Positions 170 to 514 of a DNA stretch of 32,000 nucleotides are shown in pieces (the stretch's first letter is position 1; every line of letters begins with the position of its first letter). Location of the stretch: contig NZ_CP032551.1 of the NCBI RefSeq assembly GCF_009734345.1, forward strand, positions 330,001-362,000, in the 5' to 3' direction. The translations under genes and the position numbers were made by a program. Under the pieces are notes generated by a model. The model made no database searches. It was given only the letters and a program-made list of their open reading frames with translations, and was not told the origin of the DNA. Source of the DNA: Pseudidiomarina andamanensis (GTDB taxonomy: Bacteria; Pseudomonadota; Gammaproteobacteria; Enterobacterales; Alteromonadaceae).

Positions 170-514
170 ATGAAAGCGATGAAAAAATCAGTTTCAGTAG
201 CAGTGGGTGCATTATTAGTAAGTGCAGCGGGTGTAACAGCTTCTGCGAATCCATTTGGTTTTACTGAGTTACCTGGTGGCTATCAGCAAGAGCAGCAACA
301 GCAACAGAAGCAAGAAATGCGTTGCGGCGGAAACAAAGATGCCAAGAAAGCCAAAGAAGGCAAATGTGGCGAAGGCAAGTGCGGTGAAGGCAAATGTGGT
401 GGCGACAAAGCCATGGAAAAAATGGACGAGAAAGCTAAAGAACGCATGAGCGAGAAAGCCAAAGAAGGTAAATGTGGCGAAGGCAAATGTGGCGAAGGGA
501 AGTGCGGCGCATAG
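170..514 (+). CDS. Secreted Cys-Gly repeat RiPP precursor (HvfA-like / MNIO substrate), 114 aa
   Basis: RBS AAGAGGA at 155-161, 8 nt before the ATG. The N-terminus MKAMKKSVSVAVGALLVSAAGVTASA|NP is a Sec signal with an AxA cleavage site. The mature part has a polyQ stretch, one RCGG site, and two blocks of AKEGKCGEGKCGEGKCG separated by a Lys/Glu/Met-rich spacer. All 7 Cys are followed by Gly. The gene sits immediately upstream of, and overlaps, a DUF692 gene. Confidence 0.85.
   Translation: MKAMKKSVSVAVGALLVSAAGVTASANPFGFTELPGGYQQEQQQQQKQEMRCGGNKDAKKAKEGKCGEGKCGEGKCGGDKAMEKMDEKAKERMSEKAKEGKCGEGKCGEGKCGA
356..400 (+). repeat. Three tandem 15-bp units (GAAGGCAARTGYGGY), each encoding EGKCG; block 1
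   Basis: Read directly: gaaggcaaatgtggc / gaaggcaagtgcggt / gaaggcaaatgtggt. Confidence 0.95.
464..508 (+). repeat. Three tandem 15-bp units, each encoding EGKCG; block 2, a duplicate of block 1 including the preceding GCCAAA (AK)
   Basis: Read directly: gaaggtaaatgtggc / gaaggcaaatgtggc / gaagggaagtgcggc, followed by GCA TAG. Confidence 0.95.

Follow-up and report, generated by a model that had tools for sequence, protein, structure and literature searches.

A predicted HvfA-family copper-peptide precursor gene with triplet EGKCG runs and its repeat-number variation in Pseudidiomarina

What kind of product is encoded by a short gene that is built largely of 15-nucleotide (nt) repeats, and what becomes of such repeats in related bacteria? 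The question is raised by positions 170 to 514 of a 32,000-nt stretch of the Pseudidiomarina andamanensis genome (contig NZ_CP032551.1, positions 330,001 to 362,000), the whole of which is called the window here. With a probability of about 85%, the open reading frame (ORF) at these positions is hvfA, the first gene of a three-gene hvfABC operon, and its product is modified, exported and copper-binding. A sequence-only reading of the same DNA had proposed an exported, Cys-modified copper-peptide precursor, and this proposal matches the membership of the peptide in the HvfA/oxazolin family as well as the adjacent genes hvfB and hvfC. The elements that carry the argument are as follows.

170 to 514, + strand: hvfA, a 114-residue precursor with an ATG start, placed by the ORF list, the NF050137 match and the codon pattern.
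170 to 247, + strand: Sec-type signal peptide MKAMKKSVSVAVGALLVSAAGVTASA, with predicted cleavage after an A-S-A motif, by inspection.
248 to 283, + strand: N-terminal core NPFGFTELPGGY, conserved, a likely recognition segment for HvfC (through its RiPP recognition element, RRE; RiPP, ribosomally synthesised and post-translationally modified peptide) or a 'leader-like' segment.
284 to 316, + strand: Gln-rich tract QQEQQQQQKQE, a CAG/CAA run with a Tandem Repeats Finder array at 284-313.
314 to 328, + strand: a seventh, degenerate unit, E-M-R-C-G (Cys52), opposite EAKCG/EGKCG of other Pseudidiomarina in the alignment.
356 to 400, + strand: module 1, (EGKCG)3, three tandem 15-nt units with Cys66, Cys71 and Cys76.
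401 to 463, + strand: spacer GDKAMEKMDEKAKERMSEKAK with Met82, Met85 and Met93, read from the sequence.
464 to 508, + strand: module 2, (EGKCG)3, three tandem 15-nt units with Cys102, Cys107 and Cys112, the last unit holding the hvfB start codon.
502 to 1314, + strand: hvfB, a multinuclear non-heme iron oxidase (MNIO, DUF692) maturase with a GTG start assigned by homology, overlapping the end of hvfA by 13 nt.
1311 to 2099, + strand: hvfC, the DUF2063/NGO1945_C partner (RRE-type, PME-1), overlapping the hvfB stop by 4 nt.

There is consistent evidence for placing the first of these genes in the HvfA family. The NCBIfam HvfA-family domain NF050137 matches its product at 37.7 bits (cutoff 19.5) over two stretches, homologues of the product number 1795, and close relatives carry the NCBI/UniRef name 'HvfA family ... 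RiPP metallophore'. The peptide contains six exact EGKCG units, and the other traits of the family accompany them, which include a Sec signal peptide (by inspection), the N-terminal core NPFG..L..GY ahead of the repeats (in a 33-sequence alignment), linkage to an MNIO (DUF692) of the HvfB/BufB clade whose gene overlaps hvfA, and linkage to the DUF2063 / PME-type-1 partner HvfC (1311-2099). The signal peptide has the layout common to the aligned family, with the basic n-region MKAMKK, a 16-residue hydrophobic stretch and T-A-S-A before N27. Cleavage of the signal peptide of Haemophilus influenzae HvfA has been demonstrated experimentally in E. coli (PMC11252979).

The two partner genes are equally recognisable. 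HvfB scores 398 bits on NF003818 (cutoff 360) and matches PF05114 (MbnB_TglH_ChrH) at E=2.6e-102, and its DVNN and DTH motifs align with PDB 3BWW and include the residues corresponding to the site-3 ligands N175, D242 and H244. The alignment with 3BWW (E=2.8e-72) runs from the first residue of HvfB, and therefore the start is taken to be GTG 502, within the final EGKCG unit; NCBI places the start at the same codon in a contig that is 99.9% identical. The window HvfB shares 93% identity with its counterpart in 'Idiomarina sp. 34-48-12' and 84% with the one in P. tainanensis. HvfC scores 203.6 bits on NF050145 (cutoff 142) and is also matched by PF09836 and PF22106. As hvfA overlaps hvfB and hvfB overlaps hvfC, the three genes are predicted to form a single hvfABC operon.

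A repeat gene invites the question of whether the right frame has been read. The repeats had been expected to create long spurious ORFs on the opposite strand, and stop-free ORFs do exist there at 269-625 and 283-486, for the codons of Lys, Glu, Gly, Cys and Ala have no stops among their reverse complements. That one of these is the true gene and the EGKCG frame incidental is extremely improbable, although both are open and the 283-486 frame (−), in which the repeats read PHLPS, is synonymous-biased against the related loci L081, L001 and L002 (16:7, 15:9 and 34:13 synonymous to non-synonymous codon differences). This bias is the expected by-product of third codon positions that coincide with those of hvfA. 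In the sense frame the same ratio is 17:5, 19:5 and 40:10, respectively, while the other two sense frames hold 0-2 synonymous changes, and all six units encode EGKCG although their codons differ. Hence, the hvfA sense frame is under purifying selection. It also matches a curated family and has a signal peptide and a ribosome-binding site (RBS). In the sequence of the antisense ORFs, which were compared with no family library, neither a signal peptide nor a start context was conspicuous. These were rejected as genes and are regarded as spurious, and the bias at 283-486 shows that care is needed when repeat genes are called from codon patterns.

The analysis itself shows the gene anatomy, the membership of the three genes in their families, the purifying selection on the sense frame and the indel variation among orthologs. 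The thiooxazole chemistry, export and copper binding of the window peptide are put forward by analogy with H. influenzae HvfABC, Fontimonas FonABC, the Neisseria ngo cluster and Microbulbifer MmrABC. By this analogy, the 114-residue product would be synthesised in the cytoplasm, and HvfB-HvfC, the MNIO with its DUF2063 partner, would oxidise the Cys of each E-G-K-C-G to a 5-thiooxazole (-4 Da per site) at six units and possibly at Cys52 in EMRCG, which may be a seventh modification site. The modified peptide would leave via Sec, the signal peptide being cut after Ala26, and the resulting product of about 88 residues, Lys/Glu-rich and largely disordered, would bind several Cu(I) ions via thiooxazole N and S and buffer or chelate copper in the periplasm or outside the cell. 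The 15-nt tandem repeats and the larger duplicated modules would set the number of binding units, with units gained or lost in frame by slippage or inter-module recombination on a speciation timescale.

The best precedent is H. influenzae HvfA ('oxazolin'), which has three AEGKCGEGKCG motifs and six -4 Da Cys modifications, for which HvfB and HvfC are both needed (PMC11252979). The modification was first assigned as oxazolone/thioamide and was reassigned to 5-thiooxazole by two groups in 2025-26. With seven Cys in about 88 mature residues and a Lys/Glu-rich composition, the window peptide might also be taken for an unmodified, metallothionein-like protein of the periplasm whose free thiolates bind metal, with hvfBC as unrelated neighbours. 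This is very improbable, as hvfA and hvfB overlap by 13 nt and the order hvfA-hvfB-hvfC is kept in every related locus examined; moreover, modified H. influenzae HvfA competes with bicinchoninic acid (BCA) for Cu(I) and the unmodified peptide does not (PMC11252979).

Several points weigh against reading the locus as a modified, copper-binding HvfA system. The HvfA equivalog model NF050188 gives 23.1 bits against a cutoff of 95, and no Pfam match to DoxX (HvfX) was found among the hvf operon genes and 26 other window ORFs, though DoxX is frequent but not obligatory in such clusters, for which the literature speaks of 'various combinations'. Expression, modification, export and copper binding of the window peptide are carried over from homologues, and the published stoichiometry of 1 Cu per modified Cys pair is not directly transferable, because the units here stand in triplets and that figure was derived from pairs. 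AlphaFold2, run on the precursor with the 33-sequence alignment, gives a low-confidence model (mean predicted local distance difference test, pLDDT, 49; predicted template modelling score, pTM, 0.13). Near the 3' end of hvfC (~2030-2034), a 1-nt insertion alters the last ~11 residues: the window reads CCAGAAACT against CCAGAACT in 5/5 relatives compared (L082-L084 and L001, plus L002 from its protein tail), and the extra A shifts the frame so that HvfC ends in ...VPETIPKSFVVPEPQLKYDPHRKF (262 residues) and not in ...VPELYQRALLFPSHN (253 residues). The extra A may be an error of sequencing within a short run of A or mark a genuine variant of the C-terminus, and the HvfC profile match is otherwise intact. 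In view of the triplet runs, the DoxX gene that was not found and the equivalog score, the peptide is best classed by profile matching as belonging to the HvfA/oxazolin (Buf_EGKCG) RiPP metallophores at family level rather than as an ortholog of the H. influenzae protein, and the locus is a minor architectural variation within the family, not a new kind.

Comparison with known systems makes the nature of this variation clear. Like the window peptide, H. influenzae HvfA (NTHI1441; hvfABC + hvfX) has a Sec signal peptide, six motif Cys, EGKCG repeats near the C-terminus, Lys/Ala/Glu-rich spacers and the MNIO HvfB and DUF2063 HvfC next to it; the DUF692 structure 3BWW, with which window HvfB aligns, is 72% identical to H. 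influenzae HvfB according to the authors. However, the window units form two triplets (EGKCG)3 in place of three AEGKCGEGKCG pairs, one N-terminal Cys in a motif-like EMRCG context stands in place of two disulfide-forming Cys, a Gln tract and a three-Met spacer are present in the window, and it has no adjacent DoxX/HvfX gene in addition to failing NF050188 (23 bits vs 95).

A survey has described ~2,000 'Buf_EGKCG/oxazolin' precursors of 31-506 residues with variable repeat numbers, which adjoin MNIO, DUF2063 and often DoxX genes (PMC12452194). These Pseudomonadota precursors (Antoine/Leprevost et al. 2025) share with the window peptide the signal peptide, the variable EGKCG number and the MNIO and PME-1 neighbours. 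The same family likeness extends to the 'captophorin' Lys-Cys group, including fontiphorin (FonA) and gonophorin (PMC12668002), and to MmrA of Microbulbifer (PMC12538549). Repeat number varies among Buf_EGKCG, captophorin and MmrA members, lengths run from 31 to 506 residues and the modification is 5-thiooxazole. The published account of the Buf_EGKCG precursors stresses repeats of 17 residues that hold two EGKCG, whereas runs of three are the rule in the window and in Pseudidiomarina, and the window spacer is longer (21 residues) and Met-richer than the published description.

More distant systems differ in the precursor itself. The bufferins Buf1 (DUF2282) and Buf2 (BUF_6/12Cys) resemble the window system in MNIO type, DUF2063 partner, Sec signal peptide and thiooxazole copper ligands but not in precursor fold or motif, since the window peptide has no DUF2282 match and has EGKCG repeats; window HvfB scores 275 bits on the BufB model, below the cutoff of 310, and stands above the HvfB cutoff. 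Methanobactin (MbnA/MbnBC) likewise relies on MNIO-modified Cys, converted to heterocycle and sulfur ligands that bind Cu(I). In contrast, MbnA has a leader peptide in place of a Sec signal and is free of repeats, it is modified to oxazolone/thioamide and its partner is MbnC, not DUF2063; HvfB is distant from the MbnB model (37.5 bits vs a cutoff of 325).

The EGKCG repeat unit is peculiar to this one gene of the window. Tandem Repeats Finder detects two arrays of 15-nt units (x3.1), one at 356-401 and one at 464-509, as well as a CAG/CAA array at 284-313, which bears out the tandem units and the CAG/CAA run that had been read earlier. In the 32-kb window, 6 copies of the degenerate unit GARGGNAARTGYGG are present, all within hvfA, against 0.02 expected in shuffles (0/100 shuffles reached 6). 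In the peptide, the order is MKAMKKSVSVAVGALLVSAAGVTASA, NPFGFTELPGGY, QQEQQQQQKQE, MRCGG-NKDA-KKAK, (EGKCG)3, GDKAMEKMDEKAKERMSEKAK and (EGKCG)3-A, as the sequence-only reading had it except that NKDA between MRCGG and KKAK had been left out. The same reading called the two modules near-identical in DNA, which was overstated: 356-400 and 464-508 match at 37/45 nt (82%), or at 87% over 55 nt with the KAK lead-in, and the longest exact shared stretch is 20 nt. All module-to-module differences are synonymous third-position changes.

It had also been predicted that orthologs would differ in the number of metal sites through gain and loss of repeats. For comparison, hvfA was taken from 60/80 loci that were found via HvfB, so that the sampling is independent of the HvfA sequence. 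Among the HvfB-selected loci, runs of three units are typical of Pseudidiomarina and pairs dominate other taxa. The unit numbers differ between relatives as had been predicted, with nt identity to the window in hvfBC given where available.

Window: hvfBC reference; EGKCG 3+3.
L001: hvfBC 89.8% identical; EGKCG 3+3+3.
L081 (P0002): hvfBC 88.6% identical; EGKCG 3+2+2.
L002: hvfBC 72.5% identical; EGKCG 3+3+3.
L003-L005: EGKCG 1+3+3.
L008: EGKCG 4+3.
L012, L013 and L015: EGKCG 1+3+3+3.

Compared with L001 and L002, the window is without exactly one 81-nt module bounded by ~30-nt direct repeats (GAAGGCAAATGYGGTGGYGAYAAAGCCA); L081 shows two separate in-frame 15-nt unit deletions; and the Gln run differs in length by 3-6 nt (1-2 codons) in L081, L001 and L002. 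In-frame repeat indels are concentrated in hvfA, since by contrast a single 1-nt gap is all that the alignment of hvfBC with L001 and L081 contains over 1583 nt. Variation of this sort is already published for the HvfA family (PMC12452194, PMC12538549); for example, the EGKCG Cys count ranges from five to eight within the genus Microbulbifer (PMC12538549).

The tandem 15-nt units, the CAG/CAA run and the occurrence of three architectures among taxa 10-11% diverged in hvfBC might suggest that hvfA is a hypermutable contingency locus, whose unit number varies within a population and tunes copper capacity on ecological timescales. This is improbable. Of six contigs with exactly this 114-residue peptide, one is most likely the source of the window, and the other five are contigs of its species that come from different samples, so that no within-population length variation was seen, although assemblies can hide minority length variants and this evidence is thus not decisive; the hvfBC of L082-L084 (three contigs aligned; one NCBI assembly) is 99.4-99.9% identical to that of the window. 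Likewise, the 99%-identical variant P0001 retains the 3+3 layout. In addition, synonymous differences between units leave a longest perfect repeat of 20 nt, a poor substrate for high-frequency slippage. The contingency reading is not supported by the same-species contigs and was set aside: repeat number varies between species, and variation within the species of the window was not seen.

A further question is what lies between the modules. The three Met that had been noted in the spacer are present (M82, M85 and M93 in the 21-residue spacer G78-K98), and their positions are conserved in L001, L002 and L081. In the HvfB-selected set, Met makes up 7.8% of Pseudidiomarina spacers (present in 30/33 spacers) and His 4.5%; Leu, Ile, Val and Phe are absent from them. 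Spacers of other taxa contain 4.8% Met, 0.4% Val, 0.2% Ile and 0% Leu, and the HvfA-selected set agrees in spacer composition. Across the family, then, no large hydrophobic residue but Met is retained in spacers, and therefore a Met-specific role, as a soft ligand or an oxidant sink, is favoured over a hydrophobic helix face. Two roles had been offered for these Met, an extra thioether site and a recognition helix. The second finds no support, because spacers range from 4 to 82 residues across the family (median 12) without conservation of sequence, and AlphaFold2 predicts no helix there, albeit at low confidence. Its only helix lies at residues 40-48 in the Gln tract, the rest being modelled as disordered. 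By helical-wheel arithmetic, M82, M85, A89 and M93 would fall within an 80-degree arc if the spacer were helical, and the low-confidence model neither supports nor excludes an amphipathic spacer helix. The thioether-ligand role appears to fit better on this circumstantial evidence, and a part for the spacer Met as auxiliary soft ligands is speculative.

Taken further, triplet thiooxazoles with Met/His spacers might be the binding unit in the Pseudidiomarina lineage, with a Cu(I) coordination different from that of the pairs, a capacity tuned between species by module recombination and functional spacer Met. Each ion could be held by three heterocycles, or the sites could be polynuclear with mixed thiooxazole/thioether ligands, and spacer Met would then be functional soft ligands or sacrificial antioxidants, not filler. 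This extension is unlikely as a whole.

If the spacer is a poor candidate for recognition, the N-terminal core is a better one. Within NPFG..L..GY, L34 and Y38 do not vary across the 33 sequences, and conservation of F29 and G37 is at least 90%; by analogy, and consistent with PMC11252979, this segment may be what HvfC recognises. The Gln tract that follows appears to be a lineage-specific expansion of a widespread GYQQ motif.

The neighbourhood of hvfA touches on whether the peptide would buffer copper or acquire it. In Pseudidiomarina and Paraneptunicella, hvfA lies directly after a tonB-tetratricopeptide repeat (TPR) block (L081-L084, L002 and L088), with exbD upstream in L002, L081, L082 and L083 and exbB in L081-L083; the window starts just past the block. 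Two signals precede hvfA.

55 to 80, + strand: intrinsic terminator of the upstream gene, from a terminator scan (11-bp stem, 6 GC pairs, then a T-run).
156 to 162, + strand: Shine-Dalgarno AAGAGGA, 7 nt 5' of the hvfA ATG, read from the sequence.

A role as a copper-acquisition chalkophore with TonB-dependent uptake like that of methanobactin, and not as a detoxifying buffer, would suit the exbB-exbD-tonB-TPR block directly before hvfA in relatives, and a chalkophore role has been raised as a possibility for oxazolin (PMC11252979). It is nevertheless an unlikely reading. The strong terminator at 55-80 parts hvfA from the upstream TPR gene, and it is found in the window and at a conserved position in the aligned Pseudidiomarina loci. 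The TonB neighbourhood is not conserved outside the lineage, as Pseudoalteromonas has dus and a dksA-like gene upstream, and no TonB-dependent receptor is adjacent to the hvf operon. The related bufferins protect against copper excess (PMC12452194). As the upstream genes of Pseudoalteromonas are different, the TonB block next to hvfA is probably lineage synteny, not a functional link. The evidence gathered cannot separate acquisition from buffering.

Between the terminator and the RBS, the non-coding segment 91-145 is highly conserved in L001 and L002 and partly so in L003-L005, and it contains an 8-bp palindrome, GACATGTC, at 110-117; it may be the regulatory region of hvfA. A scan for the sigma-70 consensus between the terminator and hvfA found no promoter. 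By eye, a weak candidate can be seen at 108-137 (AAGACA-18 nt-TGcTAGTCT), which is conserved only in the closest relatives. The motif [AG]AGAGGA/GAGGA and the hvfA ATG are conserved in L001-L008. At the other end of the gene, the hvfB GTG (502-504) falls within AAG TGC, the Lys-Cys codons of the last EGKCG unit, and the last ~43 nt of hvfA with the first bases beyond (468-518) are 100% identical in the window, L001 and L002, despite an identity of only 72.5% between hvfBC of the window and L002. This identity suggests a dual constraint, that of peptide coding and that of translational coupling to hvfB.

Downstream of the operon, a conserved 41-residue ORF with a single transmembrane segment (MAHDENFRDESGVKMGWLAVIVFVAVPVLPAILGWYKFFSA; 2118-2243, + strand) begins 19 nt after hvfC and has no Pfam or NCBIfam match. 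Its family comprises 144 clusters in 5.8 billion proteins, and all species-named matches are Alteromonadales. It stands directly after hvfC in the Alteromonadales hvf loci examined and is followed by apt, or by a response regulator and apt, wherever the downstream ORF is readable; in other taxa a DoxX-like ORF, judged from a sequence motif only, comes after hvfC instead. The view that it is a fourth hvf gene replacing DoxX was not adopted, because in Ningiella (L090) it stays upstream of apt without hvfBC. A stand-alone CheY-like response regulator lies at 2268-2663; it stands between the small ORF and apt only in Pseudidiomarina, and Alteromonadaceae do not have it there. It is followed up to 9061 by the housekeeping run apt, dnaX, ybaB, recR, htpG and adk.

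The family to which this hvfA belongs is already known and named by automated annotation, and the current picture of it is unchanged by the locus. What the locus adds is a marine Idiomarinaceae example to the actively studied RiPP metallophores (oxazolins, bufferins and captophorins). The layouts 3+3, 3+2+2 and 3+3+3 among taxa that are ~10% diverged amount to a natural, near-isogenic deletion series, which could serve to ask how copper capacity scales with the number of units. Similarly, mutagenesis of the spacer Met would be a concrete and cheap way to approach the question of how several Cu(I) ions are arranged by EGKCG peptides.

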